A stretch of DNA of 55,117 nucleotides, counting the filler, from Jimgerdemannia flammicorona (lineage: Eukaryota): the NCBI GenBank assembly GCA_003990765.1. It is 3 parts of 3 records of this genome, joined end to end, with 100 filler letters (N's around TTAATTAATTAA, not from the genome) between each part and the next. Parts side by side here need not be neighbours in the genome. Positions count along the whole stretch, not along the records: positions 36,814 to 55,117 come from RBNJ01002244.1; 2 more parts are not named here. One strand, written 5' to 3'. Below the pieces are notes generated by a model. It was not told the DNA's origin. It did not search any database and saw only the letters and a program-made list of their open reading frames with translations. Shown one piece after another: positions 1-54,323 of the stretch. The translations under genes were made by a program, and so were the position numbers. Numbering within the stretch: the stretch's first letter is position 1; every line of letters begins with the position of its first letter.

Positions 1-3000
1 CCCCCCCCCACTAGCCAAGATTTCAAATTCTCCCAGTGGCCTTGCTCATCATCCATCCTCTGCTCTACACCCAGCTGATTCCCTACTTCTATCCAAAAGT
101 CCCCCAGCATCTCACACTCTCCCAGCCAATGTTCCAGTATCTGTACAAATCTTCCAACTTGTCCCACATTATAATACTCCTCACAATCTAATTGGTCACC
201 TTCCACCAGATGCCCTGTACAGAAATTCAACATGATATTCCTCTGCAGCATCTACCACCATACCACTCAGAACTTGAGAGAAAGTCATATCTATACCTCA
301 GTACTCTATGACCAGATACCTGCCCAGTCCCACTCCTTGCCAATTCTTGCTGCCTGCCATCTACTTGGCCAAAGATCCTGGCCAAGACCCTGCTGACACT
401 CTACTCTATCCTTAATGTCAAACTCAGTAAGCAGAGCACTCTCCAGAAGCAATATTGCCCCACCAGTACAGGTCTATTCAGTGTACTCCATCCACCACCC
501 TCCACCAGAAGCCCTTAAACTACAGCCATCAACTTTCATTCAGCCCCACCAGAGTGAGCAAATCTCCTGAGGACCCTTGAGGAGAGAATCTCATCTCCTA
601 CACCCTCTGCAGCAGTGGCACCCAACCCCCTCCCTGTAATTCAACAGCTCTCTTCAACCACTAGGCTTGTAGGCAGTACAACTTCTTAGGGAAATCCACA
701 AGGCCTAGTTCTCTCCTAACCACCAGAGTTGCAAGGGTATCCCAGCTGATCTGGGACCTCCTCTTAGCCCAAATCCAATCTCTAGTCATCTTTGTCAGCC
801 TCTTCACTACCCAAGCTGGGAAGTCTAGGTGATATACCATATACTATAGCTTGGGGAATCAGTAGGTATTCAGAATCGACATCTGCTCTGCCAGAGAGAT
901 GTGGCAACCCCCCCAACCTCAAAGGGCCTCCCCCCAAATGGCTACTCTCCTCTCCCACCACACTCATGGTAAGACAGACCCATATACCAAAAGGAAGATA
1001 CCCAGATACCACACTACCTCTCCTGTAGAGATAATTGTTCCAATGATGTTCCCTCCCACCAGTCCATTTCCCAACACCATCATCTCACACTTATACTAGT
1101 TGAGTTTCACCCCAGAGTGTGCCTCATACCAATCTACTGTCTCCTTGAGTATCTCCACATTAGCCACCAATCTAAGTTCAACTACTATATCATCCACAAA
1201 GGCCCCCATCTTCTACACTACACCATACATAGAAAGCCCTTCCACCTTCCAATGGATCCTATCCATCAAAGGTTCTAAAGAAAGAGTATAGAGGATAGGA
1301 GACAGTGGGTCTCCTTGAGGAACTCCTCTTCCTAAGAGAAATGCCAAACCTCTGTGATCATTACACAATAGCATCACTCTGCTACCTTCCAACAACTTCA
1401 ACATAGAAGCCCAAAACTGTGAGGGCACACCAATTCTATCAAGTACCTTGCCCAGCCACTCCTGCTGAACACAGTCATAGGTCTTCTCCTGGTCCAAGAA
1501 GACCAGTCTACTATCCAGTCCACAAGCCCAGGCCCTTTCAATGATGCCATACACCCAGACAGTCCTGTCCCTGATAAGCCTGCCTCCTATAAAGCCCTAC
1601 TGCTTCTCACCCAGCACCTGCTGGATAACCCTCTGTAGCCTTGCAACAATCACCTTAGTCACCATCTTCCTGTCCATATTCAGGAGCATGATCAGCCTCC
1701 AGTTCTTCCAGTCCTCCCACCTCCCCTTGTCTTTATATAATAAGGCCACCAGTCCTAAGTCTTGCTCACCAACCCACTCGCTATTTAGGAGAATTTGGTT
1801 ACAGAGGGTGGCCATTTCACCTAATACTCCAGGGACTTTCACCATCCTCCTCCAGAAGTCTCAAGGTAACCCATCCTCCCCTGGCACTGTTCCAAGCTTA
1901 GTCACCACAAAGACTCTCTAGATCTCCTCCTCTTGGATCAGTAAGATTAAGTCACCCAGCCCCACTACCTGCAGTGGCTCCCACTCCTCCAGTATATCTC
2001 CAATCACCTCCTCATCAGCACCCCCTTCCTCCTCACTCCACAGACCCCACTATCTCTCCTTCAAAACCCCCAAGATCTGGTGCATACCATGTACCATATC
2101 TCCCTCAGCATCCAAGACCCTATCCCACTGATGTCATATTCTCCTAGCTTTGAGGAGCCTAGACAAGTATCTAGTAGGCTGCTCTCTCTCCTCAAGCCCC
2201 TGCCACTATAGCCTGGCAGCTATTCCTTTCAAATGAATCTCCTCCTCCTCTCTCAAAACCTGTTGCAGCTCCACTACCTTCAATTTTGCCTGCTCTAACC
2301 TCCAATCCTCTACCTCTTCAGAAGAAAGCAAATCAACTCATTCCATCTGCAATCTCATCAGCCTATTAGAAGCATATCTTATGTACTTCCTTCTCTATCT
2401 CCCAGCCTCCCTACCAGCCCCTCTCCAATAGACTCTCATCACCTCCTTCAACCACATCCAAAGGACACCCACAGCCAAACTCTCTTGCCTCCAGATATGC
2501 ATCCTTATCTGGATGTCCTCTACCCATGAGTCCCACAACACCTTCTCAGTCAGCAGAGAGGAGTTAAGGTGCCAATGTTCAGGTCCATCTCCACTTCCCC
2601 CAAACTGTTTCTGCCCCAATAGCCCCCAGTGAGATATCACTCTATCTCCAAAGTCTTCCAAACATCAGCACCCCAGCATTTGGCTGTTAGAATCCAGTCA
2701 ATCCTCATACCCAAGCCATTCACCCAGTGTGTGTAGACCCTCTTGTTGCCCCAGCATGTTCAGTCCATATCCCCCAAGGAGCTAAGATTCTCCACCTCCT
2801 CTCATGCATCCAGACCACTACTCCTCCCACCTGCATTACTCTCTCTATCTGTTCTATCCAATTGTGGATTCTGAATCATATTAAAATCACCACCCAGAAT
2901 ATCTACTCCTTCCTCCAAGAGAATATCCTTCTCCAGCAGATCTCAAATCCATGCAATCCTCTCACCCCTAACTGCAGGGCAGTAGCAGGAGCCAACTCTC

Positions 3001-5446
3001 ACCAGCTCTCACCCTGGCTGATGCCAATCTCCCCAGACCAAACAGTTGCCCCAGCTCTTGACTCTGCCTAAGTCTCCTCTATCCTTCTTCATCAGAATCA
3101 CCACTTTGCTAAACCAAGCAGTATCCTCTCTCTATTCTCTAGTCCACTCCACTTGATTATTCTCATCCTTATACTATATATCCTGCAGTAAAAAGAGATC
3201 AGCCTCCAATCCTTTAAGCCAAGTAAAAATGTTCCTATATTGCCCAGATTCCCTTAACCCATTCATATTTAGAGAGAAAATGTTAGTTGTACTATTCATA
3301 AGGAATAATATTGTTGATCAATTACATCCTCTACAAATCTGCATACAATACCTCCTGTACTAAGTCCAAATTATATTCTGCAGCCAGCACTTTCTCTTCA
3401 ATTGCCTGGGCCTCCAAACCTACCAGAAGTTTAGCCAATACCCCATTCTCTTTTTCCTCAAAGTCCTTATGATACTCCAGGCCAGCCTCCTGCCAGAGTT
3501 GCAATCTATGCTGCTCAGCCCAATAGTAGGCAGCATACTCATCAGCAATAACTGCCAGCTCAGCCTCTCTTATCTTATCAATCTCATATCTCTCCTCCTC
3601 TAGGAAAATTGTAAGAATCTCTGCCTTCAGTACCTCCACTACCCCATCTCCACATAGGATCCATGCCCAATGCTCCTTCAGCATTATATACAGGTCTACT
3701 TCCTCCAACTCCTCAGCTGTAAAGTTATCTATCATCTTGCTCATCTACAGCAGGTTTCCCATCTCCTTCCCTCTCAGCATCCCTGGCTTCCCTATATTGA
3801 GCATCATGGTATCTGCCCCTATACTGGCAGTCTTATCTCATCTCTCCTCTAGGACATCCACCAACTCATCCTTGTCAGCTACCTTATCAACTGCCACCAC
3901 CCAACTGCCTTCTGCCACATTAGGAATCCCAAAATGAACCCTCTGAGCACCCTTCATCAATACATCCTCTTCTACCTGACCCCTTGTCACCAGACCCTGC
4001 CTAATCAGAGGGGAAGTGTCTTCCATAATCAGGTCCCATACTTCATCAGCAAATGAGTTCTTGTGCAGCACCTTCTCAGCCCCTCCCAGACTTTCCTCCC
4101 CAATACTTCTGCTCTCTCCAGCCCAGACACTCACCTCCACACCCTCAGGCTTTGCAGAGCCCCCAGCCACTATCTTTGTCTCTCCTTTTATACTCACTAG
4201 CAGCTCCTGCTACCTCTTGCACCCTTGAGCTCTCTCCCACTGTCTCTTTTCAGTACGAATATGCTTCTCATCAATAATCTCCAGGTGTGTTGACTCCACA
4301 TAGAGCTTCCAGACCTTTGTCTATCATTTGACCACACCACTCAACTCCTCCAGTGCTTCTAATAAGTCCTTCTCCTCCTCTTCACTCCTCTTCACCCTTG
4401 ACACCTTATAGATAAATACCCCACATCAATACTGAGGGCCAGTCACTCACCTTTCCTGTAGCCTCTCTCTCTGCCAGTCTGATCCTGACATCAATATCAC
4501 CTGTCCTAATTGCAGTCCCCTCCCACACCTAGAAGCCAATATCCACCATGTCACCATACTCTACCATCACCTCCTCCACTCTCCTCCTAGTCTCAACTTT
4601 CATCACTATAGGCACCCCCTTTACTAGCAACTACACCACCCTGGGGTCCCACCTAAGACATTGTACCATAGGGACCACCACTTCTCCAACCACCACTCTA
4701 GTCTTCAGCACCTCATCCAGTGGGCCCACCTCTTCAAAGTCCACCTCAATCCCCTCTTCAGGAACTTCACTGAGGCTGCCCTAGCTATCTGCTGCAAGAT
4801 AAACCCCAGGATCATTCTTGCAGTTACTGTTAAGCCCTGGAAGCACAAGGTAGCCACAAACTCTGAAATCAACTTCTTGAGTAATGGTGCCACTGCTAGC
4901 CCCATCACACCATCAGCCAGGTCCCCCTTCTGCTTTGGGCCCATCTACTCAGCCCCTCCATCAATAGTCATATCTGGATTTTTTTCCAGATTTCCAGTCA
5001 TGCCCCTATCAGTAGTCCTGCCACTACTCTCAGCAGCCATTCTACCAGCCCTACCACCCACCAGCAGAGGTCCAGCACCTCTAGCTCCTCCAGCTTCTCC
5101 CATCTTCTACTTCTCCTTCCCTCCTGCCTGCCCATTCTGAGTCTCCACTGATTAACCACCATCTCTTAGTATATCTGTAAAGCTCCTCCCTGCCTGCCCT
5201 CCAGCCCTACCACTAGTGCCACTACTATTATCTGAGCTGCCCTGTCCACTTGGACTACCGAAAGACCCTATTCCAAGCCCATACTCTTGTCCAACATACT
5301 GCCAGTTGAAGGCCCCAGGTCTATCTGACCCAATATATACATTGGCTTGCTTGCTGATTAACATTGCCTTAATATCTTTCTCCAATAAATAACTTGAAAG
5401 TGTGTTGTAAAAGTGTGTGTAACATGAATTGTAGTGGAGAAAGGTG
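1..5446 (-). mobile_element. Decayed near-full-length L1/Tx1-like LINE (ORF1 + APE-RT ORF2); 3' end runs off the window
   Basis: ORF2 starts ~3299 (MNSTTNIFSLNMNGLR, APE motif I-like). RT motifs: WRLIMLLNMDRK, DQEKTYDCV, GVPQGDPLSPILY, GAFVDDIV (~1185-1205). ORF1 runs ~5364-3331 with an RRM-like segment. Many stops, almost no CpG. Confidence 0.9.
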
Positions 5447-5459
5447 CTATTAGTCATCT

Positions 5460-23416: not shown

Positions 23417-23579
23417 CCCTTTGTAATGTCACGTGACTTCGGAAGTGTGTGTGTGTAAAAAAATATCGTAGCCGCCGGTCAACCAGATACTCAAGTGAAG
23501 CGGTCCGTACTGTGAGGAGTTTGTTTACAAGATTGTACCTTTAGTGCTTGGTATCACAGCAATAGCAAGGAAGGGGCTG

Positions 23580-25050
23580 ACAGTCAGCAGTTAGAATAAC
23601 TGATACTTCAGACAGAGTAATGTTTGTTGCTGCATTTATATCTCTTGTATTGTGTATACTTGATCATCCTTACTGTGCACTGGAGATAGATATATTTGAT
23701 TATACTTTGCAGGCAAATAACCTGCTCCTTTCCACTAACAATCCTGTAAACTTGATGGAGAATAATTTTGAAAAAACAATATAGGTAAGTTTTTGAAGAA
23801 TTATACATATTTTAATTATAATTTTTCTATTATATCTGAATCTTTTTTTATTTCTCTTCTAGAATATTTTTTGATATAGTATTTGATTTTTTACTAATAT
23901 CTAATATAGTAGATCAGTATAGATTTTAATATATTAGGAAGAAGTCGAGTATAGATATAAATATATCTTAATTTCTATATAGTAATTTTATTATAAGCTC
24001 TTTTAGTCTAAATCTCTTGCTTCTGATTTTTTTTTTTTTACTTATTTCTTCTATTGAATCTTCTTATCTATACTATAATTTTATTACTACTGTTACTTTT
24101 TTTTTTATATTTCTCTGAAAAAATAATCTTATTAATAAAACTTATAGTAATTTTATAGAGTTTAGAAAGAGAATTAATATTAAATATATAGTATATTTTG
24201 ATTAGAGCTTTTTTTTTTTTTTTTTAATAAATTGAAATTAATAATAATAAAAATCATAATAGTATATAAATTTGTTTTAGAAAAAATAATCTTTTTATAT
24301 AAAAAGATATATTTTATAATTATTAAAAATAAATTTATTTATTTTAAAGATAGAAAAAAGAAAAAAAAAAAAATAATATCTGAAAGATTTTGATAGATCT
24401 AAAATAGCTTAAAGAGATACTTAAAGATTTAAGTATTTTCAAAGAATTTTTAAGAGAAAATATTTTGAGTTTTATTTAAATAAATAGAGAGAATATTTAT
24501 ATAATCTTTAAAAATAAAGAACTAAGTCAAAAAAGTGATTTTGATAAAAAATAATTAATATCAAAAAAGATAAGAATATTTTAGTTAGTACTTTTAAATA
24601 AATTAAATTTAGATCAAATTGAGATCTAATTTATATAATTTAACTTAAAGTCAAACTTTGAAATATAATAACTTAATTAAAATATATATCTAGATTTGAT
24701 GATTTTTATTATATTAGATTCTTCTAAATGAGATAAATCTAGTAAGTCAAATTTATCAAATTTAGATATATTTTTTATCAAATTATTGAATTTTGAAAAT
24801 TAAGATTCAAATTAAAACTTAAATTAAATTAGATCTTAATTTGATTTATTTCAAATCTAGTTCTAATAAAGTCTTAGTATTAAAAAGATATTTCTAAGTA
24901 TTTAAAAGATACTGAAATATTATAAAATATATAAGAAAAGATAAGAAAAATAATACAAAAATAAACTATAATTAAAGAAATTATTATATCTCTCTCTTTT
25001 TAAAAATTAATATTTTTATTAAATTCTTAAATTATATAAAAATAACTATA
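23580..25050. repeat. Extremely AT-rich decayed transposon block with a ~260-bp imperfect inverted repeat (~24600-24860)
   Basis: GATCAAATTGAGATCTAATTT pairs with AAATTAGATCTTAATTTGATT; ATATATCTAGATTTGATGATTTT pairs with AAATTTATCAAATTTAGATATAT. Confidence 0.6.
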
Positions 25051-25254
25051 CTTAACTAAGGTTTCTCAAACTTATATTATGTTACTATGAAGAGTTTATT
25101 ACTTTATTAAAATATAAGCTAAAAGTTTAATAACTAAAAGTTTAAATCTTATAGAGAGTGATTCTTATTATCTAGTTATATTATATCTATTAGTAATATA
25201 TTTATATATTTATATATCAAGTTACTGAGCTGAGACCATAGATAAATATTATTT

Positions 25255-26560
<1,306 letters not shown>

Positions 26561-27727
26561 GGATAGGCTGGAGAAGGTGATGGCTGAGAGGAGATTAGCG
26601 GTGAACCCTTTGGATGGGTTGACATATCTTTGGAGTCATTGTGTTTTCGGTGTGATAGCACGCCGCCGTTGCAGCGAGGGGGTTTAACGTAGATCGAACG
26701 TTGACTCTGGTTTTGCTACGCGACCCGGTCGGAGCTGCACGATGTACGTTCCGAACTCCCATTCGTTCATCCGACGTTCGCTCACTCGCGCGTCATTCCT
26801 CCGTCTGAGGCGGCACGACGAGGAGCTCGCGGAAAGGGCCGCGACCAAAAGCTGCCACGGGATAGGTCCTACCGCAAGCACCAAAGCCGTGTCACGTCCA
26901 TGTAGCAAAGGGAATGCTATAATAGAGGAGTTGATGGTAAGTCAGTACCATCTACTCGGTATGAAGAATCTGTTGCCGCATTTGTCTATCGGTAACTTCG
27001 AAGTTTTTCGCTCTGACGGTACTCTTTGGCGCTCGAATCCGTTGTCGAGGGTTAGTCGAGATTTTTGCCAAATATTCCTCATTTCTCTCCCAGTTACCCT
27101 TTGGCATTACCTCGGTACAACCAAAAAAAAAAAAAAAAAAAAAACGCTCCTATGATGCCGCTTTGCACGAAGACATTTGTAACGCCTGATGACGCGTGGG
27201 TGATTTTCGAGCGGGTAGTCATCCTTTCCATTACTAGTGAATGAGAGTCGCAATATTCTTGGACAGATTAAGTGGGGTTTTGATCAGCACATTGGGTTGC
27301 AGAAACTCCAGCGCGCTAGTGTGGCATGTAAAACATTTTGAGGTTCGGTAAATACACTTTCAGTTCCTCGGCGCTACCCAGTGCTAAGGCGAATTTCGAA
27401 GAGTGGGTGTAACTCAGCCGCTCTAGGATCCACCCTTCTCACCTTTTGGCTACTCTTGTCAGCCAGGTCGACCATCGAATAGCTGATGCTGTTGAGTATC
27501 ACAAAGATGTTTTTCTGGCAGAATTTGGTTGAAAGCCGATGATGAGCATGCAAGGGTAAGTGTCCGAGGCAATCGAAACCGCTCAGCCCTGTCGTTTGAC
27601 CAGAACTTGCTTTCCCATTACTCTAGGAACTCAACCTACTAGCAACCGTCTTTAGGCCTATGCAGCAAAGACACAGGAACGCTTCAAAAAATAAGCGTTA
27701 TAAACCTAGGCAGCAGTTCTTTCCTTA

Positions 27728-27846
27728 AGCTACGGCCATACACACGGCAATGCACCGGATCCCGTCCGATCTCCGAAGTTAAGCCCGTGATGGCCCAGTC
27801 AGTACTATGGTGGGGGACCACATGGGAATACTGGGTGCTGTAGTTT
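27728..27846 (+). rRNA. 5S ribosomal RNA gene, dispersed single copy
   Basis: AGCTACGGCCATAC…GATCCCGTCCGATCTCCGAAGTTAAGC…AGTACTATGGTGGGGGACCACATGGGAATACTGGGTGCTGTAGTT; complementary ends, T-run terminator, TATAAA ~29 nt upstream. Confidence 0.97.
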
Positions 27847-36713: not shown

Positions 36714-36813
36714 NNNNNNNNNNNNNNNNNNNNNNNNNNNNNNNNNNNNNNNNNNNNTTAATTAATTAANNNNNNNNNNNNNNNNNNNNNNNNNNNNNNN
36801 NNNNNNNNNNNNN
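36714..36813. other. Assembly gap with artificial TTAATTAATTAA linker
   Basis: 44 N + TTAATTAATTAA + 44 N. Confidence 0.95.
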
Positions 36814-37115
36814 GCCATCCACTCCCCTTCACCTTGTCAGCAAAGCTGGAGGGGCCAGCCCTTCCCCTGTTACCACCTGACACCGGTCCTCCTCCAGAGC
36901 CCTCCCCGCCCTTCGATCCTCCAAAGGCCCCCATCCCCAGGCCAAAACCCCTCCCCACCTCCTGCCAGCCGAAAGCCCCAGCTCCCCCCGACCCAGTACG
37001 CCCGTCGGAACTCTTGTTCGAAGACATGTTGATAGTACCTTTTCTCCTAGTAGTGTCGAAAACTGTTGCTTGAGTCTTGTGTAACGTGAATTGTACCGGA
37101 GAAAGGTGTTTTGCT
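36814..37115 (-). mobile_element. 5' end of a young, CpG-intact LINE related to the element at 1-5446
   Basis: ORF1 start MSSNKSSDGRTGSGGAGAFGWQEVGRGFGLGMGAFG resembles GSDRPGAFNWQYVGQEYGLGIGSFG of the first copy; shared 5' motif at 37079-37108 vs 5417-5446. Confidence 0.8.
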
Positions 37116-37529
37116 CATATTGCAATAGATATAATTAACCTTTTAATAATGATATTATTGTAACTTAGTTGGAAAATGGAGTGGAGAGAAGAGCAGTATT
37201 GTTTTTATTAATTCTTATATATTTATATATCAAGTAATATAACTTAAAAGATGATGTAGTTATATATAAGCTATATTATCAAGATATATAATAATGAAAA
37301 TTTTAATATTTTTATTCAATGAGATAATGAATATAATATAAGTGAGAATATAATATAACAAAGCAATAACTGCAAATTGACTACAAATATACTCAAAGAA
37401 TACTATAGTGAAAATAAAGAATATAGATATATCTTTATAGTAGAAAAACTCAAATATAGAAGAAGAAGAAGAAGAAGAACTATTAAATAACTATAATATA
37501 ATATAATACTAGAAGAGAGAGATATATAG

Positions 37530-40500
37530 ATATGGTCTTTTTCTCTAGTACTAATTATATTATATAAACTTCTAACAATATTTTCAATATAGCTTTTGGA
37601 GAAATATTAATAGCAAAATATTAACTAGCAACAGTTCTGATGGACATGCTGGGTCAGATGGATCTGAGGCCTTTGGGTAATATTATATTAGGAGAGAACA
37701 TAGCCTGGGAATGAATTTCTTTGGTAGAATGAATGGTCAGGAGAGGGCTGGAGAATGGCTGATATCTGGAGAGAGTAGAGGCAAGCTGGAGTCTATGAGC
37801 TTCACTGATAAGATAAAGGAGAGAGAATGGCCAGTAGACTCTAGGGCTAGTAGAGCTGATAGTAGGGGTAGACCAAGTTAGGGGAGGGCTAGAGGTCCTC
37901 TGCCTGGAAGAGTGAGTGTAGGGAGGCTAGAGGGCTGTGGCTGAGAGAGAGAGAATAACTGCTGATAGTGGTATAACTGGAGATCTGGAAAAAAATCCAG
38001 ATATGCAGCTAATAGCAAAGCTGGGCAGATAGGCTGGAAAAGATAAGAGAACTTAGTGGACAGTGTGATGGACCAGACAGTAATACTATTACTCAAGAAG
38101 TTGATCTTAGAATTTACTATTATATTGTACTTCTGGGAACTAATAATAACTGCAAAGATAGTTCTGGAACTGATCTTGAAGCAAATGGCTGAGGTGGCTT
38201 TAGTGAAGTTTCTGTTTGGGCTAGAGGAGATTGAGGTGAGCTTTGAGGAGATAGGGCCACTGGAGGAGATATTGAAGACTTAGTTAGTACAAAGAGAGGT
38301 AGTGGTACTAATAGTATACTATTTAAGATAGGACCCCAAAGTGGTTCAGCTCCTGATAAAAAGAGTGCCTATAGTGATAGCTGCAGGATGAGGCAGAGAG
38401 TAGAGGAGATAATGACAGAGTATAGTGATGTGGTAGATATTGAATTCTGGGTCTGGGAGGGGACCTCTTTCTGAACTAGAGATATCAATATCAGCTGGAA
38501 GAGAGGCTACTGAAAAGGCCCAGGACTGGCCATCAGTAATAATGTAGAGTGCTTTTATTTGTAAGGTAACAAGAGTAAAGTGGAGTGAGGAGAAGGAGGA
38601 GAATCTGCTGGAGATACTGGAGAACTTGAGTGAGACAGTAGAGTATTGAGCAGAGATATAGAGAAAGTGTGTGGCTTTGATCCACTTGGAGGTGGTAGAT
38701 GGGAAGTGTATTTAGATAGATAAGATACTGTGAGAGAAGGTATTGGAATTATAAGTCAATATGTATCTATATGACTTTATGCTAATTTATTTTACATTAT
38801 TTGTATATCATTATTTATAGCACCTAAAAGTGTACAATTTGTATAATGAATAAATTGCTTCTTCTGTTTATCACAACAGGTTATTAGCCCCAGTTAGCAG
38901 CTAGAATACCTCTAGTTTATATACTATATTAATGAATATAGGTATGAGCCAGAGTACTAAGATGGACATCTTTACAATGGCCCCATGGTAATGAAAAATG
39001 CAGTCCTGTTGTAAAAGAAGCCTGCTAATAGTGATAATGAAGTCCTCCCTGATAGCAGAAGGCAATTATAACAAAGACACTTGCCTAGGTATTAGAGGCA
39101 TAAAGTCCTCTCAGGTTGCAGAGGTAAATGCAGCTGAAAAGGCCAAGTGACTGAGATAATTACAAAGTCCTCCCAAGTGGTTTAGGCAATTGTGACAACA
39201 AGGACACCAGCTGATGAGGCATACAAAACTAGTATATATGAAACTAGCAATAATATCAATGGAGACAAACCCAAACCAAAAGATCCAAAGTACAAATAAG
39301 GCAAGAAATACTGCCAAAAGGTCCAAAGTATGGATGAGGCTACAGAAAAGATCAATAAGACTAATGAGGTCAGGAAGAGACCAATAAGCCAAAATGAGGC
39401 AAATAGTAAATAAGGCTAATACAGACAAATCTAAGCCCAGTACAGAATATACAACCAACCATTTGAAGGTAACTATAATTATTGTAGAATACATGGACAT
39501 TATGAGTGAGAATACTGCAAAAAGAATAACAATGATGTGGAAAGGAAACTACAGTGGCAGCCATATAAATCATGTTAATAATGGTCAATTTATATATAAG
39601 CAATATTTGTACAAACAACTAGCACCTGTTCTACTATCAGTTCTATGAGCAGTTCTATTACTAATTTAGCTAACTTGACAACTATGCTAAGTAACATCTA
39701 TATCTGATATCAATGACTTAGATGTATCTAGCAACAACTAGCAATTATGTAAACAATACAGCCAATACTGATTAAATAGAGCAATAATCAGAGTAATATC
39801 TAGTATAAACAGCAATAATAACTATCAATGTCTCTAATGGTAATATCTTTAGAATAACAACATCCAGTATAACTTGAAAAAATGGACAAATGCAATAGTC
39901 AACAGAAATATATTAGCAATCACTAGCATATTCTGAGTCTGGAATAATTGAAATTCAGGATGACAAAACTTCTGATGATGAGGAATCCTCTACAAAAGAG
40001 CAATTGTAAAAAGAGTAACAACATCTAGTATAAGTAGTACAAGCAGTACAATAACCACTTTTAATATCAGTTAAACAACCTGCAATAAATCTAAATAATA
40101 GTAATATTCAATCACTGAAAAGGCAACTGTCAAAAGAGCTGAAAAAGCAATTATCAAAACAACAATCATCAACCACAGCACTGCATACAGTACTGTACAA
40201 AGCCATGAATTCCTACAATAGCAAAGAGTGGAAAAGACTATGGATGAATATGGCTCTCTCATTGAGAATGACACTTCTTGAGAATGAGAATAGATATATT
40301 AAGGAAATGGTGAACTATACAGTTACTCTGTATGGAAATAGAAATGATAACACATTAAGTGAGAGCATATAATTATCTAATTCCTATGATGCTGACTGGC
40401 AACCTCAATGAATGACTGCCTGAAATATATCTCTTATAAGTAGGTAATCATAAGACATTTTAGGCTCTTAAATGCCTTTCATACTATATATATATTTTAT

Positions 40501-40664
40501 ATATAATTATATGTATATATTATATTTCTATAGGTATTATAGTATATATCATATAGGCATTATAGAACACTTTTCAATCTGTGAAAATTCCTAGATAGTT
40601 GTAATTCTGGATTATATGTAGTTCTAGTTTTTTATATGTATTGTATAACTTTTTATTCTAATTT

Positions 40665-40755
<91 letters not shown>

Positions 40756-41420
40756 AATATAGTTGATATTTATTTTTTTCATTTTGATATATATATCTCC
40801 TTAAGCAGGAGTATTGAGATTACAAGTCAATATATATCTACATGACTTTATACTAATTTGTTTTATATTATTTATATGTTATCATTTACAATATCTAAAA
40901 GTGTATAATTTGTATAATGAACAAATTACTTCTTCTGTTCATCACAACAGAAGGCTTAGAAGAGAAAAAGATAGAAGGACTTGCTGACTAGAATGAAGAT
41001 ATTGCTGGTAACTAGAGTGGAGGAGAGTTCAGGGAGAGCACTGGAGAGTGTCTGGACTGCTGGCAGTATTGAGAGACAGGTAGAGAGTAAGGGAGTGAGT
41101 AGAGAAAGGAGGGATCAGTAGCTTTATATTAATGGTGTACTTGAAGTATAGGAGGAGAAAGAGGTGGGTGAGGTGTAGGCCACAGTCCCTAGGCAGAGAA
41201 CTGGTGAAGACATCAAGATAAAGAATACTTAAGAGTTTAGTTTGGAGTATCTGATATAGCAAAAGGGGGACAGATGGTTGGTATTAAGGTAAATAAGTTA
41301 ATTGATATTCCAGAGAAGGTATGGAATAAGTCTATAAGTATTAGAACTGATATTTCAATATTGAGTAAGGGGTGGCCTGATACTCTTAGAGAGAAGAATA
41401 TTGGAGACTTACAGTAACAG
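37530..41420 (+). mobile_element. Decayed LINE ORF1 (third copy), interrupted by a Copia insertion at 38741-40949
   Basis: SSDGHAGSDGSEAFG at ~37633; FEEIGPLEEILKT…LR*DPKVVQLLIKRVPIV matches ORF1 of the first copy; similar purine-rich sequence resumes after 40954. Confidence 0.8.
38741..40949 (+). mobile_element. Internally deleted Ty1/Copia element with 138-bp LTRs (38741-38878, 40812-40949) and 5-bp TSD GAAGG
   Basis: LTRs T(G>A)TTG…CAACA; GGTTATTAGCCC after the 5' LTR (fungal Copia GGTTATGRGCCC-type PBS); PPT AAGCAGGAG; RT remnant MDEYGSLIENDT and RNase H-like DADW; GAAGG at 38736-38740 and 40950-40954. Confidence 0.9.
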
Positions 41421-41769
41421 CAAAACTGTAACAATATTTAGTTATTTTTAATATATAATTATATTATAGCTTCAATATAAATATAATAAAATCCAAATTT
41501 TTACTATTAATAATATAGTATCTCAGCTTTTGAATAATATATTTTTTATTTTATTTAGATAAATATAGATATTAATATAACTATTTTAAGTTATATTACC
41601 ATTGTTATAGTTTTGAGCTTCTTGGTCATCCAAATCTGTTTAGGTTTACTACATATCATTGAGTTGAGCTATAATTATCCACTTTTACTATAGTATTGTT
41701 TCAGATATTCTTTATCACTCTATAGTGTTTTGTCATCATTTTCAAGCAATAAAAAAGCTTTCTATTGAT

Positions 41770-44566
41770 ATTTGTAACCACATTATTCACTTATTGCAAT
41801 CTGATTATCTTCACTTAGCAATGACCTCAGTTAATCAATACAGGACAACAAAGTGGAGAAACCTACTATATCTCTAGTCTTCTTAGGTATTGAACTTGAT
41901 TTGGCCACTATGGAAGCTTATCTACTCACTAGAAAGATCAATATAATTATGGAATACCTATGTCAATAATCATCATGCTCAATTTATATAAGATTATAAC
42001 TTCAATCTCTAATCAGTCTATTGGTATTTATCACCAAGATTGTCCCTCCCAGCTACCCATTTCTTTGCTGATTCATTGATCTAATCACTAGCAACTCTGC
42101 CTTCCATATCTTACTCATGGCCAACTTTTATGCTGATGTATTATAATGGCTTAAGTTTCTCCTACAATGGAATAGTATCTCTATCATCTATATAGTCAAC
42201 TGGTCTCACTCTCCCAATTCCCAGCTCTGGACTAATGCCAGTAATAATTTTGACTTTGGAGTATATTATGAGGACTCTTGGTTTTTCACCCCCTAGTCTC
42301 CTAATCTTCTCTCATATAATATTCAATTTAAGGAGTTATATGTAGTTATTACTACCACCCTAACTTAGGGCCCTTACTGGTCATTCCATTGAATCTTACT
42401 TCATATAGATAACTAAACTATCATTACTATTATCAATTCTGAAATCTTTCAGAATTCTCTTCTTCTCAAGCTACTATATCAGCTTTACTTTCTCATAGCA
42501 TTTTATATATTTCAACTTTTCACCATATATATCTCTATAGCTAACAATAGTATTGCCAATATTCTATCTCACTCTGATCTACTTTATTTTCACCATCTTG
42601 TCCCTTATAAATATATGCTCCTGATATAGATTGGTACCATTTATATGCCACACTCTTATCTATCATTGCCTTCTTTCTGTGGTTCAGTCTGGAAAAATCA
42701 ATATGTCACTTATATTTATGAGGACAATGCAGTTTTCTTCAGTTCTTTTCTCTTCACAGTAGCCATCATAGATTTGGCCATACCAGTCCCCACAATACTC
42801 TCTCTATATCTGAGCTGGTATTAATACACTAGTATGCTCTCTTGCTCAACATTATTTGTAACCACTTACTATCAAAAAGTATCTCTCAGTCATTCAATCT
42901 CTTCATATCAACTCTAGCTTCAGCAACCTATTCATTGGCCTTTAACAGATCTCTCACATAATATGTAACATAAAACACTAGCTCAGGCTACACCTGTCCT
43001 ACTCTTGGTTACTGATTACAATCAACATTCTATACTGCCTCCTTACTTTCCTATACTTGTCTAATTTTGATGATCTCAACCTTGCTATAACAATGTCTCT
43101 TATATATGTTAGCTTTTTATAGTCTGACAAATTCATATGAGACCTCTCTTTTGATACATTCTACCATATGTCTCAATGCTACATCATCTTCTACCCTCAT
43201 ATTACAGACTCTATATATATTATCTTTACTCTACCAGTATCCAAAATAGACTCCTTTTAATAGGGGTTGATCTCTGTTTATTGGCCAAATAGCCCCCAAT
43301 ATTTCATGCATTGTCTCACTCTTAAGCTTATTATTTCTTATATTTTCTACACTACTCAGCATATCTCTATTTATATACTCAATATGCTATTCTTTCTTTT
43401 GATCCTATCTTGTCCAGTATCTTTGATTTCTACTTTTTCAAATCAGCCTTACCTCAACCCTCTTTGCTGGTTATAGCTTTTAAATTAGTACTATGTCTGA
43501 TGCTACTATAGTGGGTCTCTTGGACTATAAATATAAATACTCAGATGATGGTCTAGTGGGGCTTTCAAAGAATATATATACATATCTATCTCTTAAATTA
43601 TTGAACTTCACATATCTCTCTTGATTATTAATAATCTCTGTCAATATTTTAGCCACTTGTCTATGATATTGACTAGTTGGTAATAGTCTCTCTATACTGC
43701 ATAGGCTACTATACTGACCCTATGGCTCTATGCTATATATAGTAGTCTGTTCTATCCTCTTATATTGCTTGTACCACAACTTACCTTCTCCCCTCTCTTC
43801 TGCTTTTGACATTTCTGTTCTCTTCAGCTTCTCTCTTCTCTTTTTCTCTATTAATATTTATTCATTATCTTCTTTACATTATATAACATTTTATTTGGGT
43901 CAGTTTTCTTTTCACTGTATATCTCTTTCAAATATATTTACTGAAAAAAACAATTACATTCATGGGTTTTCTTTTATATCAGAGGGTTATATCTTTTATA
44001 CAAAGGCTTTTTTCTTTTGCATCAGAGGGTTATAACTTTCATATACTGGTCAGACATTATAGCTAGATATTGAATGAGTGGGCTTAGTTAAGACAACAGA
44101 TCAATGATTGCAGGAATATCTTTGGTGCTGATGTCTTTAGTATATACATCTTATCTATATTTCTGTTTTAGGGCAGTGGTGAGATAATGTAATGTTTTAA
44201 TATACATTGTAGATATATATATCCTATTTTAGTAATCTATAGCATTAGGTGCTTTATGCTCATTCTATTCATCATTCTTAGCTCAATATGCTACCCCTTA
44301 CACTCTATATACATTCACTGTATGTACATTTGCTCTTGCTTTCATCTATCACCCCTCCTCCCTGCTCATTTATATACATAGTTATGGGGCTGGTTTTCAT
44401 TTTACCGTGTGTTTCTCCCAAATACATTTACTGGAAACAACAATTACATTCATGGGTTTTCTTCTTTCACATCAGAGGGTTATATCTTTTGCATGCGGGT
44501 TTTCTTCTTTTGCATTGGAGGGTTATAACTTTCGCATGCTGGTCGGACATTGTAGCTAGACATTGA
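41770..44566 (+). mobile_element. Decayed tyrosine-recombinase retrotransposon (Ngaro/DIRS group): RT-RNase H end, YR ORF, split direct repeats
   Basis: FLGIELD (41880); RNase H LWTNAS…NIQFKELY…NSIANILS; YR motifs PVSKIDSF, FAGYSF*I (= GHSFRIG), ILR*WSSGAFKEYI (= LGRWxS…Y); direct repeats ~43900-44073 and ~44400-44566. Confidence 0.85.
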
Positions 44567-47712: not shown

Positions 47713-49359
47713 GGCGAACTTTGTGCGTGGAGATAGAGGCGGATAGAGAGGGGTGGCGGCGGGGAGAGCTGGGGTTGTTATTACATAAGCTCACATTGTT
47801 TCGTTGAAATGAGAAACACCAATTGCGAGACATATTGCTGGAGAAAAAGTCATGCGAGTGGAAAAAGACAGGAAGAGAATGGGAACATGGGTGTTAGGTG
47901 CGGAAATAAGGAGAATTCGCACAGCTCAAAATCTTGATTCTTGATTTAGTTGTAAATGTACATTACATAACACATGCGAATTAGACGTAATATAACACGA
48001 CATTTCGGGTGTTACGTTATGTTGCATAATATCTCTAGAACCTTCGTCTGGACATATTTTCCGTGTATTCCCCTGAAGACATTTTTGCTAAGAATCAGTT
48101 TCTTCGAAATTCAAAGTTACGAAATAAAGAGACAAACTATATGGTCGATCATTGACAGCCGTTAATAAAATTTAATTCGTTTTTTAACATTTGCAATAAG
48201 GAGATATGAATTTAGTCTCAAGTCGTTGAGGTCGGTGAACGATATTGTGATTACATCACAAAAGCCTGGTACCGTACATTGGGTACCACTGAGTACCTGC
48301 ACCTTACATTAAAGTACATATGTACACCATGTATGACATGTATATATACGACTTGGTTTTATGACTCGGCTGCCTGCGAATTAATTATACGGAAGGGTGT
48401 GAGACAGGTTTCCAGTACAATATTACAAATTGTTTCTTATCAACAAATAAGAGCAAAGGATTCTTATTTTACAAACTCTGACAATATACTGTAAAGTTAA
48501 TTTCCCTCTGTATTTAATTATACAATACCCCTTCAACACTGTAATCTAACAATTGTCCATTATCACGTTGCTGTCATTCCGGAGAAACAATTCATATGAA
48601 AACTCCGAATGGTGCAAACTGAAATTAGAGGGAGGCGATTATATTGGTTACATGTAGAATGACTATGATTGTCGCATTATCTGCAGAGCCACAACTATAA
48701 CAATTATTTGCAGGACGGTCCCGTGCGGCCGAATAAATTCGGAGCACATGTATGACATCGTATTCAGTAAGGTAATGTAAATTTAGGGTACACGACAACC
48801 CCAACAAGGTACCGTCCCCTGACGGCCAAACCTTAACCAAGGAGTAGAACCCATCACACTCCAACAAGAAAACGCCCGTCTATAAGCACAAAACGAAGTA
48901 GTTGTAGCACATATTGAAGAACTTCGAGCGCGAAACGAAGAACTTGTATCCAAGTTGAGACCAAGCAAAGCACGCCTCGCAGGTGTAATTGAAAATTTCA
49001 ACGTTGTTCTTTGCGATATTTGTCTTTCCAACCTCAAGTAACAAAAACACGTACGATTCTGTTGACAAATTCTTTTCCAAAAACCACTTTTATTGAGGGG
49101 CACTGTTCGAGTTGTCATTCGGCATGCAATAAAACTTTACTAGTATTCTTGAATAAAAATATTTTCTTATCATACAAGTTTGAGCTTGTACACCATGTCT
49201 CCGAAAATGCCACGAGGAAAGACGTCTCCACCTGGGTATTCTCCTCACGGTTTCGGTTGCACGGCATGAAGGCTTAGGCCGTAGTAAAATTTGAATAAGG
49301 TGGATGACTATTTTAAGATGGATGAACCGAAAATCTGTGTCGGAATGACCACAAATGTG

Positions 49360-49690
49360 GCTGCAGGATCTAAGAGTCCACTGCAGAAAATGTAGTACAA
49401 TAGAGTATCGAAGGCAATTGCTGCAGGGTCTAAGAATTGGCTGCGGAAAATATACTACAATAGTGTATCATCTTATCCCTGAAAACGCTCCAACAATCTG
49501 CTGCAGAAAATGTAGTACAATAGTGTATCGTCTCATCACTAGAGACGATGGCGGCAGGATCTAAGAATCCGCTGCAGAAAATGTAGTACAATAGCGTATC
49601 GTCTCATCCCTGAATATGATGAGGGCAGGTTCTGGGGACCCGCTGCAGATAATGTAGTACAATAGTATATCGTCTCATCCCTGAAGACTA
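49360..49690. repeat. Five imperfect tandem repeats (period 59-71 bp), core CTGCAGAAAATGTAGTACAATAGTGTATCGTCTCATCCCTGAA
   Basis: Cores start at ~49382, 49442, 49501, 49572, 49643. Confidence 0.9.
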
Positions 49691-49806
49691 ATCGGCGGAA
49701 TCCGCAGTATATTCATAAAGTGTATCCCTTCTGCCGGTCTGTCATTTTACATCCATCTAACATGACATCCCAGCTCTCTATCCCATCGACCGATACGTTG
49801 GTTAAC

Positions 49807-52800
49807 ATGGATTCAAGGCGTTATACCATCCCAAATAAGAACAATACTGTCATTTCGCTGCCGCTCCAAATTTCCGATGGTATGTCAAAGTAGACACCAC
49901 AAGGCACGACTTCCTTTTCGCTTATGTCGCAGAAGCAAGCCAACCTCTTACTTGTTCGTTTTCTCTTTCAAATACGAAAAGGCGAAATACATTACTTTTG
50001 GGGAAATACTAGCGTAACTGAAGACTTTTATTTTGAGATCACTCTCATGCCAGAACATTTGCCAAGGTGTGTTCTCGTAGAGTGTCCAACATCGTTTTAT
50101 TTCTCAATAACGCCCAGCTGACCGTTTTCACTAATTCCCCAATTTCCCACCCATTGAAGTGCTCTTTGGCTAGGATTTGTATACGACGAATGGTTCACGC
50201 TGAGAGAACATGAAAAATTTAGTCGAGGTGAGAAACAGGGATTGTTCTTATTTATCACGAGAAATTATTACTGATTGACAACTCCATGTAATTTAATTCA
50301 GGTCGCGGGCACGACATCACCACGTGGAACTTCGAGCCGCTGACAGGGTCCCTGAAGTTTGGAAACATGTTATATATGCATGATCCAAGCACAGTGGATG
50401 TTGAAACCACAATTGGATTTGGCGTGACGCGCTATACAGACAAAGATGAGGACTTTTGGTCTGTTCTTTACATAAGGAGTGATGGGCAAGGAAACGGTAG
50501 GATACCTCTACAATGAATTCCATTCAATGATGTATTCCAGAAATTGTCTTATTTTTCTCAACTCCACAGAGATCGTGAGAAAGGAAAGCCTTCCGGAAGG
50601 GCTTTATCCTGTTATCCGCCTCGAACAGTCTAGTCCAGACATCGTGATCAACTCCATGGTGTCCTTCAAGCATCAAGGCCACCAACCTTTTCACATTCCG
50701 CACCAAGCTCCTGTTGGACTCTTTCAGTGTTCACCGGATCGCCGCTACGCAGCCTGCTTCAGTGGGGATGATGGTATCCTCACGGTTTGGCGTCTTTACC
50801 TTGGTCAGGACCCCGAGTTCGTTAAACATATATCTGTTCCGGATTTCACACTCAGAGAGTTCGACAACGTTGGTTGGTTGTCTCACAAGTAGTTCAGTCT
50901 TGCCGTTTCGAACACTGTCGATGAGGAATTGCCCGACCTCGTTTTAGGTCGTTATCACATCAAACTTCCTCCGGAAGACTGTCAAATTCTTTTCCTGAGC
51001 TACAACGGCGCAGATCACCTTCCCATCCGCCAGAATAACGTCGTCAGCCATCCGATGAATATCGTCGGCATATTCTACATTCTGGATGATGGCAACACCC
51101 TGCTGATAATGGATTTAAACCGCCTCTTTGTGGTGAACATTAAATTGCGATCGTTGATCCACACGTTTAATAGAAACCATTTAGACGTCATTCCCTCGGA
51201 GCCAGACTTCAAACCCCCATTGAAACCGCTAGGGCTGGATCATTTTCTATGGTACAATTCCCCCAATTACACGACAATGTGGCATGTCCCTACCGGTCGA
51301 TTAGTGCAAACATTTCGTTACAAATTTGAGGTGAACGATGAATGTGACTACGACACATATCATAATCTCATCGCGTTCTACGGCGTCGAAGGGTTGAAGA
51401 TTTTCACCGTCCAGACTGGCATCTCCATTTGCGAAACTAAACGCTTGGACATGGGTGAGATGACGGTTATCGGCGTGAAATTCGTTACGATCAACCGTGT
51501 TCCTCTCCTCGTGACAATAGATTGCAGCGACACGGTCTGCATTTTAGGCGAGTGGAATCCTTTGACGGGCTTGAGAGCTAAGAAAAATGGCCTGATTCAG
51601 CATAAGCACACGCTTTCGAGTGAATTCAAACATTCCGACGTCGTCATCAATAACACGGAATTATTGTCGATCTCTTTCGTGACACCGCTCAAGGCCACTG
51701 TCGCCCGCTTTTTTATGAAGAGCCTAAACGACAAACAACCACCACCCGTCAAAAAAATTCCGATCGGACTGGAATACAAAGAGATATATCCGCACCCTAA
51801 AAAGTCGGACGTAAACCTCCAAGTGGTGCAGCTCACGGGCCCACCGAAGGAATATATCGTGATTATACGTGGTTTCCAGCAAAAATACTCAGGTAAAACT
51901 TTTATCGATGGTGACTTCTGTGTGATATTGGCATGGTGAAATAAATGTAATAATGACCTGACTTGCCTGCTGACTATATATCTCATTAATCCAGTCATAC
52001 TTCGCCCTGAACCGTGGAATAACCATGCATTGACCTGTCATTGGATATCTGACGATTGTTTCGTGGTTGCCGGCCGACATACCGTGCAGATAATTAACGC
52101 TAGCAAATCGACCTACAGAAAGCACGTGATAGAGTTCGGGTGGTGCCTTCCGTCCTCGGACGCAACCATCAGTCGAATTCAATTCATCAAATCTCCGGAT
52201 AGCGAGACCGTCCAGCAGATGGAGTTAAAATATCAGCATGAGGGGGAAACGCATACAGAAACTATCGACATCGGAAGGAATTCAATTTCGCTCAAACACG
52301 CGGCACGGTATCTTCAATTCACTGGGGAGGACCACAGCAACAGGATTACCGCGGCGTATGAGAGAGTTTTGGAGCAGGGGTTGAAGCCAGCCAAGATGTT
52401 ACCAGTCAACGGAGACGAACTCGAAACTAAGCCTTCGATCTTACTTGTCAACGAGGTCGAATTCGAAACTAAGACTTCCACCTTTGGTCACATAGTTAGA
52501 GATCCGTCCACCTCAGCTGCCACACGAGTGAAAACGGTATTAGAATGCAACGCCTACCGGCCCATTTTTTACGATAATACGTTATGGGATCGGAGTGCTC
52601 TGACGGAAGCTTTGGACGTTGAAAATTTCGTCGGAGACATTGTGAGGTACTGCTTGAAGAGAGTATCGAAGGAAGGCGGTGTGTTGTTGGACCCTGGTTA
52701 CGCTGCAATCGTCGTCGGAGCTTTGCCAATCATTTCTCGGAAAAGCCCCGAACTAGCTGCTCTCATTGCACAGTACTTATCACACATTCGGTTTGATTCC

Positions 52801-54323
52801 GGATTTCCTATAGCCGGAGAGTCTCACCATGGCATATTCATAGGCGTCGAGCAACTTCCCATCAACAATCAGTCCCATCAAGATCGGAGGTCGAAACAAC
52901 AAAAATCATTCGACTTTAGGTGGAAAGGTGAAGGAGACCTTCTCCCAAGACAATGCATATCCCCTCTTTACGGCCTTAATCGCTATCCAGCAGTCCGCAG
53001 TCGCTATATAGGAGGCGCCAATATTCCGCTTAGCGTGTTCGCACAGCTCGCTTTCTGCAAAAGCGAGGTGTTTGATGAACCGGCATTCGAAGCGGTGGTT
53101 CAATACAAATGGATCAAGTTTGCACGGTGGTATCACTGTGGTCTGCTAGCTCTCCACATCGTGTATGCCCTCATTTACTTGATCGCCGTCAGTATTTCCC
53201 CGTACGCGATCATGAAACCTGGTGTCAAAATCGCACTAATAGTGCTCACAGGAATCTTTCTGATCAACTTCCACATTCGCCCGATGTTGAAACAATGGAA
53301 TAATCTAACCTACTGGTTATCTATCCACCATTGGATTGACCGCGCTGCTTTAGTACTGGTACTAGTTAGCACGTCTCTCACCTCACCAGAATATGCCCAA
53401 TCAATTGACCTTCAAGGCTGGACAGTCCTGGCGCTCTGGTTGTTCTTTGTATTCAACTTCAGAGTTTTTCAACGGTGGGTTAAAAATTTGTATTTACATC
53501 GCTTAACTTATGGCTTTTATATTTTATTGCCTATTTGCTTTAATACTAATTATTGACTTCCGCTCTCTTTGTACCCCAGTTTAGGCCTTTTTTTCACTTT
53601 GCTGATGCAAATTATGAGGAATCTTGGCTTGCTGGCTATTCTCATGATGGTGATCATTTTCGCCTTCTCTCATTCAATGTGGATTCTCCTCCGCTATACG
53701 AAGAATCCACCTGATTCAGGAAATCCATTTAGTAATATTGATGGTTCGTTGAAGATACTATGGCAATTTTTTGGGGGTGACTTCAATGCAATTGACAACT
53801 GGAATCCTGGACGATCGACAGATATAATGAGGGTATTATTCACCTTCATCAGCACAATTGTAGTTCTAAACATGTTAAGTAAGTACAATGGTTACAAATA
53901 CTTCCTGCTGCATAACTTTCCACCATCCAATTTTTCGCTCTACTCTCCCGTTACCCACTCTATGTCTCTCAAAACCATTACTAACAATTTTCCTTACTTT
54001 TTCCTCTATTTTTGTATGGTACCCTGAATAATATCTATCCAACCACTCCAGAAAATGCCAAAAAAATGTGGATTCGGAATAGGGCTGAGTTCATCGCCAC
54101 AATAGAAGTGTTTATGATGACAGCAAAACAAAGACAGAACAAGTAAGGTTTCCAATATTCCCTATGCCTTTCAGAGTTTTTGATATTGTAACTCATCACT
54201 AGAATGTCGAATTTGCAGGAACTGGTTCCCGGATACAGTGTTTTATGAGGTGTCTCCCGACAAGTTCCAAATTGTCATCCTTGGATCAAACCGCCTGTTC
54301 CTAAAGACCCTGGTGCAGGATTA
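49807..54323 (+). pseudogene. Large WD40-like + TRP-type cation channel gene with an in-frame TAG and an apparently lost splice acceptor
   Basis: β-propeller-like N-terminus (CSPDRRYAACFS), RPEPW, FDEPAFEAVVQYKW, six hydrophobic helices, pore NPFSN…WQFFGGDF, S6 TIVVLNML, TRP-helix-like WIRNRAEFIATIE, WFPDTVFYE. TAG at 50890-50892. Start exon tentative. Confidence 0.75.

Follow-up and report, generated by a model that had tools for sequence, protein, structure and literature searches.

Decay of a CpG-free transposon block, as probably recorded by an LTR pair, in a Mucoromycotina fungus

The question raised by this locus is how the two LTRs of one element in a fungal repeat block came to differ by transitions alone. 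The original prediction was an undescribed process, RIP-like or driven by non-CpG methylation, in an early-diverging, non-Dikarya host. RIP-like mutagenesis is regarded as confined to ascomycetes (PMC12543289), and little is known about how early-diverging mycorrhizal fungi, whose genomes are large and rich in repeats, keep transposons in check; genome sizes in Endogonales are 96-240 Mb (PMC7928374). The window, that is, the whole stretch of DNA analysed (55,117 nucleotides, filler included), carries a PTPA exon with 99% identity to Jimgerdemannia flammicorona (Endogonales), which points to Jimgerdemannia or a close relative in Mucoromycota, and the best PDB matches of its RPL3 are fungal; this bears out the proposed host. 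PRP43, which had also been named, was absent among the 234 ORFs of at least 70 aa scanned with Pfam.

The element and the LINE sequences that define its insertion site are as follows (RY, purine/pyrimidine alphabet; rc, reverse complement).

1..5450, minus strand: LINE copy A, with Exo_endo_phos at ~2667-3275 and RVT_1 at ~1075-1710
37524..38740, plus strand: 5' part of the older LINE copy C, broken by the LTR element; RY match to rc 4216-5450
38736..38740, plus strand: left target-site duplication, 5 bp, GAAGG
38741..38878, plus strand: 5' LTR, 138 bp, termini TA...CA, GC 0.22
38879..40811, plus strand: interior of the LTR element; six frames without a Pfam family
40812..40949, plus strand: 3' LTR, 138 bp, GC 0.20
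40950..40954, plus strand: right target-site duplication, 5 bp, GAAGG
40950..41417, plus strand: host LINE resumed after the LTR element; RY match to rc 4234-3745

The LTR element is 2.2 kb long, probably non-autonomous, and sits within the 5' part of a LINE. It has the direct LTRs, target duplication (of a size within the 4-6 bp expected) and empty site of an LTR retrotransposon, and a purine tract immediately before the 3' LTR, with termini TA...CA and not TG...CA. LINE copy C matches rc 4216-5450 at 85.6% over 1252 columns in the RY alphabet, and the two flanks of the element abut at ~4230-4235 of LINE copy A, which represents a paralogous empty site because the resumed LINE at 40950-41417 matches its rc 4234-3745. 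The interior has 66 stops in its first frame and a T87 run at 40668-40754; reading six frames through stops gave 0 Pfam families, and hence no gag/pol coding capacity, and the same search of 40950-44401 also gave 0 families. The element is either non-autonomous (TRIM/LARD-like) or fully decayed.

Repeat search and direct comparison of the LTRs reproduced the differences originally described: 20 of the 138 columns differ, by 20 transitions, 0 transversions and 0 indels. On recounting, 16 of the 20 have CpA or TpG in one copy and TpA in the other, and both LTRs do begin with TA and end with CA; with two copies only, neither the direction of the 20 changes nor a TG start at insertion is deducible. 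YpA sites on either strand differ in 16/56 cases vs 4/82 elsewhere (Fisher p=1.5e-4). Among C-bearing sites, 16/26 CpA, 2/11 CpT and 2/2 CpC differ, a modest per-C contrast (CpA vs CpT p=0.029; CpA vs all other C p=0.096). The lack of transversions has P=0.0025 at the transversion share (82/316) of the window's three older pairs of repeats, and candidate C>T and G>A changes are interspersed within each LTR. That the CA/TA differences are CpG leftovers was ruled out, there being 0 TG-versus-CA doublets in the 138 columns, and for the same reason the LTR would have had few or no CpG at insertion. Self-BLAST of the window returned only these two LTRs, and transition-tolerant IUPAC patterns matched 0 stretches in the metagenome contigs.

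The element and its host LINE lie in a block that is free of CpG, and two sets of repeats straddle the edges of this block.

36814..37120, minus strand: LINE copy B, inverted 5' fragment just outside the block, 12 CpG, GC 0.56
37098..44405, no strand: CpG-free block, 7308 bp, GC 0.32, with the LTR element and host LINE
43903..44073, plus strand: copy y of repeat pair c, within the block, all 4 CpG of its partner lost
44393..44566, plus strand: copy x of repeat pair c, on the block edge or just beyond it, 4 CpG kept

The block contains 0 CpG vs 191 expected, and a second block, 1-10490, has 5 vs 432 expected; CpG depletion is restricted to transposons, the genes in the window having CpG O/E near 1 (0.98-1.03). 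At both edges mutation is confined to the inner copy. The 12 CpG of LINE copy B compare with 0 in its inverted partner, copy C, 400 bp off and inside the block, and copy x of pair c has its 4 CpG where copy y, 490 bp away, has 0. Since copies just outside the block retain their CpGs, the limit of the process seems to be set by a domain and not by homology, as far as repeats of 170-320 bp can tell. LINE copy B adjoins the N run at 36714-36813.

The direction and context of change could be read from a polarised set of 196 C sites, made up of lineage C of a three-copy LINE alignment (only about 60-70% identical, and from a single 55-kb window) and pair c. In the block, C>T affected 7/14 CpG, 26/63 CpA, 12/53 CpC and 3/55 CpT, so that CpA exceeds CpT by about 8-fold (p=3.8e-6 pooled). 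The rate depends on the 3' neighbour (p=3e-5), as for DNA methyltransferases. CAG is also mutated less than CAH (13/58 vs 66/142, p=0.0015). GC>AT changes exceeded AT>GC changes in the polarised repeat sets (27 vs 6, and 21 vs 5 in pair c). Three-taxon parsimony placed 24 apparent T>C/A>G changes on copy B; these were taken for C>T that had arisen in parallel in copies A and C, and they were excluded. In the LINE pair a', which is not strictly polarised, the rates into the AT-richer copy were CpA 0.39, CpC 0.30 and CpT 0.22, and in the reverse direction 0.23, 0.18 and 0.18, respectively.

Within the block, then, C on either strand has become T at CpA (mostly CAH) and at CpC, and hardly at CpT, whereas the neighbouring genes, and repeat copies that lie some hundreds of bases beyond its edges, are untouched. 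The CpA bias first noted in the LTR pair is seen again, in the direction GC>AT, in further repeats of this block, and gene positions under weak constraint lack it, as the original prediction required. We consider it very improbable that chance, or an artefact of base composition in an AT-rich repeat, produced the pattern: CpA is indeed the most frequent context of C in the element (fraction 0.43), but the LTR pair departs from expectation in the Fisher test above and the bias returns in lineage C with pair c and in pair a'. The specificity of AID/APOBEC enzymes is set by the 5' neighbour (TC, CC, WRC). Editing of that type was ruled out, the 5' neighbour being without effect here (rates 0.15-0.35, p=0.14).

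The block at 1-10490 is different. LINE copy A (GC 0.48, 3 CpG in 1-5200) has lineage-specific changes without CpA bias (CpA 5/37, CpC 5/38, CpT 8/41), and repeat pair b in the same block is flat over contexts, at 0.14-0.21. The GC skew of the LINE was considered as sense-strand C>T and this was rejected, the sense strand having no T excess (A 0.27, T 0.25). The difference between the two blocks could reflect age or an episodic process.

GC>AT bias is common in eukaryotes, and transposon relics are unconstrained. An ordinary neighbour-dependent bias on such, perhaps non-recombining, DNA, with neither methylation nor a targeted mutator, would also accommodate the weak per-C test in the LTRs. 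It does not readily account for the loss of all expected CpG within sharp edges, for 20 LTR differences without a transversion, or for the size of the CpA-to-CpT ratio; moreover, weakly constrained gene positions (GC3 0.51-0.79) have no CpG or CpA deficit, O/E across codon positions 3-1 being 1.07 for CpG, 1.07 for CpA and 0.78 for TpA. We therefore regard this explanation as quite improbable.

The comparison with RIP is more involved. Features shared with RIP in Neurospora crassa and other Pezizomycotina are the predominance of C:G>T:A transitions in the repeats, the preference for CpA over CpT, and AT-rich relics with high TpA/ApT. The Neurospora order of targets is CpA >> CpT > CpG > CpC, and Neurospora RIP needs repeats longer than 170-320 bp. 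Here, in contrast, CpG is the prime target, CpC is mutated above CpT, which is spared, CpA and TpG are undepleted in the block, and copies outside the block escape, so RIP proper is not supported. Stricter RIP thresholds (product >1.15, substrate <=0.75, composite >0) are reached by 4 of 109 1-kb windows, and 11 satisfy the classic indices (TpA/ApT >0.89 and (CpA+TpG)/(ApC+GpT) <1.03). In the block around the LTR element the substrate index is 1.03-1.42 and the composite index <=0.06, and the element itself has TpA/ApT 0.98 but fails the second classic index at 1.35. The substrate index stays high because CpG decay keeps replenishing CpA and TpG, and index-based RIP screens would miss blocks of this kind.

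A true RIP-like defence in Endogonales, with a homology-triggered, probably premeiotic, DNMT-like mutator acting in bursts and ordinary methylation-driven CpG loss superimposed, would fit the 20:0 ratio of transitions to transversions, the preference for CpA, the windows that do pass the thresholds, and episodes that left a bias at 37-44 kb but not at 1-10.5 kb. A RIP-index signal outside Dikarya has also been described, with caveats, for Zoophthora radicans (PMC11105155). We nevertheless think such a defence unlikely, given the order of targets, the indices of the LTR-element block, the mixture of C>T and G>A candidates in each LTR, and the mutation of the inner copy only at block edges, although this last test is soft because the repeats fall below the Neurospora length. 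A kingdom-wide screen is reported to find RIP-like signatures in Ascomycota only (PMC12543289), and RID is given as confined to Ascomycota (PMC13297926).

Deamination of 5mC in CG and CHH contexts probably explains both the block and the LTR pair. On the sequence evidence, the pair is best explained as the trace of a silenced transposon block that decays in place in a Mucoromycotina fungus; of the two processes originally offered, the methylation-driven one appears to fit better than the RIP-like one. The block would be cytosine-methylated heterochromatin in which CpG methylation, kept near complete by DNMT1- or DNMT5-type maintenance, led to the loss of CpG first, and weaker CHH methylation to a slower second wave. 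A DIM-2-like enzyme of the DNMT1 family, with a preference of CA > CC >> CT, is the candidate for the CHH methylation, and the context rule of the footprint agrees with non-CG methylation by that family. The deamination may be either spontaneous or enzyme-assisted. As the block at 1-10490 shows no CpA bias, the second wave would not always accompany CpG loss. If decay of methylated DNA is the true reading, the blocks should carry methylation at CG and CA/CC (not CT), and the genome should contain a DIM-2-like gene. Dim-2 has been reported from early-diverging fungi (PMC7862722).

Several described systems are comparable. Phycomyces blakesleeanus, of the same subphylum, Mucoromycotina, has 5mC restricted to transposons, with LTR elements most methylated (PMC11258239, PMC7862722), and in its transposons, with DIM2 and DNMT1 present, this methylation is reported as CG and CHH, not CHG (PMC11258239), which fits the order seen here (CG > CAH > CAG). 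Methylation is described there, whereas a mutational footprint alone is described here. Because of this Phycomyces precedent (PMC11258239), the process can be called undescribed for Endogonales only, as far as the literature search reached, and not for Mucoromycotina. In Zymoseptoria tritici with Dim2, CHH methylation is at CA, then CC, with CT almost devoid of it, and C>T at CA arises during mitosis (PMC8016269); as here, C>T in transposon regions is set by the 3' neighbour and need not affect both copies of a duplicated sequence. Unlike here, where CpG is entirely lost, the Dim2-linked mutations are reported to spare CpG (PMC8016269). The host there is an ascomycete with RID, whereas the present one is a Mucoromycotina fungus and the evidence is a mutational footprint.

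The CpG-directed hypermutation of transposons in Basidiomycota acts in TpCpG context. It resembles the present case in a near-total, transposon-confined loss of CpG in a CpG-methylating fungus (PMC3318451), whereas here a second wave at CpA and CpC follows and may lower GC to 0.16. The signal in Zoophthora radicans, Entomophthorales, is likewise compositional, RIP-like and from a non-Dikarya fungus, but it is index-based and from another phylum (PMC11105155), whereas the present footprint of non-CpG C>T decay in Mucoromycotina, though from a single window, is polarised and read from alignments.

More speculatively, Endogonales may run an enzyme-driven C-to-T mutator on silenced transposons. 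It would do outside Dikarya what RIP does in ascomycetes, would have the signature CG > CAH > CC >> CT, and would convert transposon blocks stepwise into isochores of 15-20% GC; we hold this to be a doubtful, if conceivable, extension. Such a mutator may act in bursts, because one CpG-free block shows the bias and another does not. Under the decay of methylated blocks that we favour, the second wave would over time likewise turn transposon relics into islands of 15-20% GC with C left almost only as CpT. One region of the window may represent what this decay finally leaves.

23780..26400, no strand: AT island, GC 0.16, within the range of the RIP indices

The AT islands have TpA/ApT of 1.17-1.25 and (CpA+TpG)/(ApC+GpT) of 0.60-0.62, and so pass both classic indices. 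In the island at 23780-26400, 76% of the remaining C is in CpT, with O/E of 0.49 for CpA and 0.39 for CpC, and over the AT islands CpT holds 65-76% of surviving C.

Two matching segments of the window (38740–38879 and 40811–40950, 86% identity in a repeat search) were trimmed to the LTRs of a small retrotransposon, which lies inside a 7.3-kb CpG-free block:

38741–38878 and 40812–40949: LTRs, 138 bp each, GAAGG flanking on both sides

Direct comparison confirmed the original prediction of 20 differing columns, with 20 transitions, 0 transversions and 0 indels, and 16 of the 20 are CpA or TpG in one copy and TpA in the other. Of the 56 sites that read YpA on one strand or the other, 16 differ between the copies, compared with 4 of the 82 remaining sites (Fisher p=1.5e-4). 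The LTR pair alone thus has a strong transition-only, YpA-centred pattern; when only C-bearing sites are counted (differences at CpA 16/26, CpT 2/11, CpC 2/2), its per-cytosine preference is only modest (CpA versus CpT p=0.029; CpA versus all other C p=0.096). The direction of mutation is not readable from this pair alone. No columns with TG in one LTR and CA in the other were found in the comparison, and the LTRs therefore held few or no CpG at insertion.

The element is inserted in the 5' part of a LINE. Its left flank (37524–38740) matches the reverse complement of 4216–5450, in a plain BLAST alignment with 68% identity over 770 columns and, once recoded as purines and pyrimidines, with 85.6% over 1252 columns, and the right flank (40950–41417) resumes the LINE match at 4234–3745; both flanks therefore abut in the other LINE copy, with an overlap of about the target duplication length. 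That copy serves as a paralogous empty site:

1–5450, minus strand: LINE copy A, Exo_endo_phos and RVT_1 still detectable

Coding capacity is not recognisable in the LTR element (38741–40949): a Pfam search in six frames, read through stops, returned 0 families, and 66 stops are present in the first frame. The sense strands of the LINE are G-rich and C-poor (1–5450, minus, G 0.34, C 0.13; 37524–38740, plus, G 0.30, C 0.12) with no T excess. The TE blocks thus owe their strong GC skew to the element itself, and simple sense-strand C>T change does not explain it. A T87 run lies within the LTR element at 40668–40754, and (AAT)n followed by ~83 A at 25829–25942 in an AT island; these very long homopolymer runs may have arisen by slippage or as the poly-A tails of nested retroposons.

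Two comparisons inside the 37–44 kb block could be polarised. One is a direct-repeat pair (pair c), in which 4 CpG are kept in 44393–44566 and 0 in 43903–44073; from the former to the latter, changes affect 13/27 CpA, 4/8 CpG, 3/15 CpC and 1/14 CpT, with 21 GC>AT versus 5 AT>GC. The other is a three-copy alignment of LINE 5' ends (A, 5140–5470; B, 36814–37135; C, the host of the LTR element, reverse complement of 37510–37840), where B has 12 CpG and GC 0.56, and C has 0 CpG and GC 0.37. Lineage C gained 27 GC>AT versus 6 AT>GC changes, by context CpA 13, CpC 9, CpT 2 and CpG 3, with 36–40 sites at risk per non-CpG context and 6 CpG. Pooling lineage C and pair c (196 C sites) gave C>T at 7/14 CpG, 26/63 CpA, 12/53 CpC and 3/55 CpT; CpA differs from CpT at p=3.8e-6, the 3' neighbour has an effect (p=3e-5; 5' neighbour p=0.14), and chance is a very improbable source of this pattern. 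A longer LINE pair (pair a'), polarised loosely by GC content, gave CpA 0.39, CpC 0.30 and CpT 0.22 toward the AT-richer copy and 0.23, 0.18 and 0.18 in the opposite direction. Within CpA, CAG changed in 13/58 cases and CAH in 66/142 (p=0.0015).

Lineage A, in the other CpG-free block, is flat (CpA 5/37, CpC 5/38, CpT 8/41), as is pair b (11061–11300 versus 230–470; 0.14–0.21), and both count against the generality of the context bias; the evidence base is one window, with small counts and some divergent alignments. A CpG-free block lacking the second wave, that is, C>T at non-CpG sites presumed to follow CpG loss, is the main support for a homology-triggered mutator acting in bursts, an explanation we regard as possible and rather doubtful. 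Bearing on it, LINE copies B and C are inverted repeats with ~400 bp between them and the pair c copies are direct repeats with 490 bp between them, and in each case heavy mutation is confined to the copy within the CpG-free span, its partner just beyond the edge being spared. Such inside-only mutation is the prediction of a chromatin or methylation domain and not of a process striking both duplicates, the test being soft because the repeats are short (170–320 bp). The edge of the mutated domain sits inside TE-derived sequence, within ~400 bp. The inverted LINE 5' fragment (36814–37120, 12 CpG) adjoins the CpG-free block and masked N (36714–36813); four masked 44-N runs occur in 18309–18408 and 36714–36813, the second pair adjoining the left side of this CpG-retaining fragment.

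Along the window the distribution of CpG is bimodal, with O/E of 0.98–1.03 in gene regions and the following depleted spans:

1–10490: CpG observed 5, expected 432
17088–18066: CpG observed 1, expected 9
23507–26598: CpG observed 1, expected 28
37098–44405: CpG observed 0, expected 191

The CpG-poor spans make up a series, from the LINE at 1–5200 (GC 0.48, almost no CpG) through the block with the LTR element (GC 0.29–0.39) to the islands at 17–18 kb and 23.8–26.4 kb (GC 0.23 and 0.16). CpA and CpC are depleted in these two islands (CpA O/E 0.49–0.63, CpC O/E 0.39–0.41), and 65–76% of their remaining C precede T. AT islands lie between genes or TEs at 23780–26400, 17088–18066 and 5501–6500 (GC 0.15–0.28, CpG nearly absent, substrate index 0.42–0.64, TpA/ApT 1.25–1.5). 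No TE homology was detected in these three islands, which may be the end state of decay. In the first CpG-free block, weak matches to a retroviral-type aspartyl protease (9782–10084, plus strand; E 2e-5 to 5e-4, read-through translation) mark a second, LTR-type TE remnant.

Single-copy DNA under weak constraint was free of the spectrum. In ten exons or long ORFs, seven with a Pfam match (GC3 0.51–0.79), codon positions 3-1 (2283 dinucleotides) have O/E of 1.07 for CpG, 1.07 for CpA, 0.97 for TG and 0.78 for TpA, and thus neither CpG nor CpA loss; a generic mutation bias is unlikely to lie behind the footprint in the repeats.

Index-based tools would miss the second wave, CpA/TpG being replenished by CpG decay. 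In the LTR-element block, 1-kb windows give TpA/ApT of 0.93–1.15, (CpA+TpG)/(ApC+GpT) of 1.03–1.42 and a composite index of at most 0.06. Stringent RIP thresholds are passed by 4 of 109 1-kb windows, all AT islands, and the classic pair of RIP indices is satisfied by 11 of 109.

RIP-like signatures are described as confined to Ascomycota in a kingdom-wide k-mer screen (PMC12543289), and an index-based RIP claim for Zoophthora radicans is caveated by its authors (PMC11105155). Phycomyces TEs are reported to have 5mC at CG and CHH, not CHG, with DIM2 and DNMT1 encoded in the genome (PMC11258239), and early-diverging fungi are said to possess Dim-2 (PMC7862722; PMC13297926). In Z. tritici, Dim2 is described as producing non-CG methylation at CA, followed by CC, and leaving CT nearly free of it; Dim2 also causes mitotic C>T at CA (PMC8016269). 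The Jimgerdemannia literature searched yielded nothing on RIP or DNA methylation in Endogonales, RIP being named only generically in one paper.

The original prediction had offered a RIP-like or a non-CpG-methylation-driven process. The latter part holds up better: deamination of 5mC placed at CG and CHH sites probably accounts for the footprint better than classical RIP does, because decay would have run through CG first and then CAH and CC, with CT spared, the 3' neighbour is decisive, the domain edges are sharp and the genes are untouched.

A non-Dikarya fungal host, also predicted originally, was borne out by a PTPA gene exon (12164–12958) with 99% identity to a Jimgerdemannia flammicorona protein, the named hits that follow at 62–75% being mostly other Mucoromycota and some chytrids, and by RPL3, for which fungal proteins are best among solved structures. 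A helicase (PRP43) domain was not found among the 234 ORFs scanned in the window. Besides PTPA and RPL3, the window carries RPL35a, a TruD/Pus7 gene, calcipressin and one 5S rRNA gene (27728–27846, plus strand, 106 bits), which is dispersed amid protein-coding genes ~650 bp from RPL3. At 50893–53553 on the plus strand lie two long ORFs of 348 and 538 aa, neither with a Pfam family, and tandem repeats within GC-normal and possibly coding DNA have periods of ~72 bp at 23191–23414 and ~60 bp at 49357–49704.
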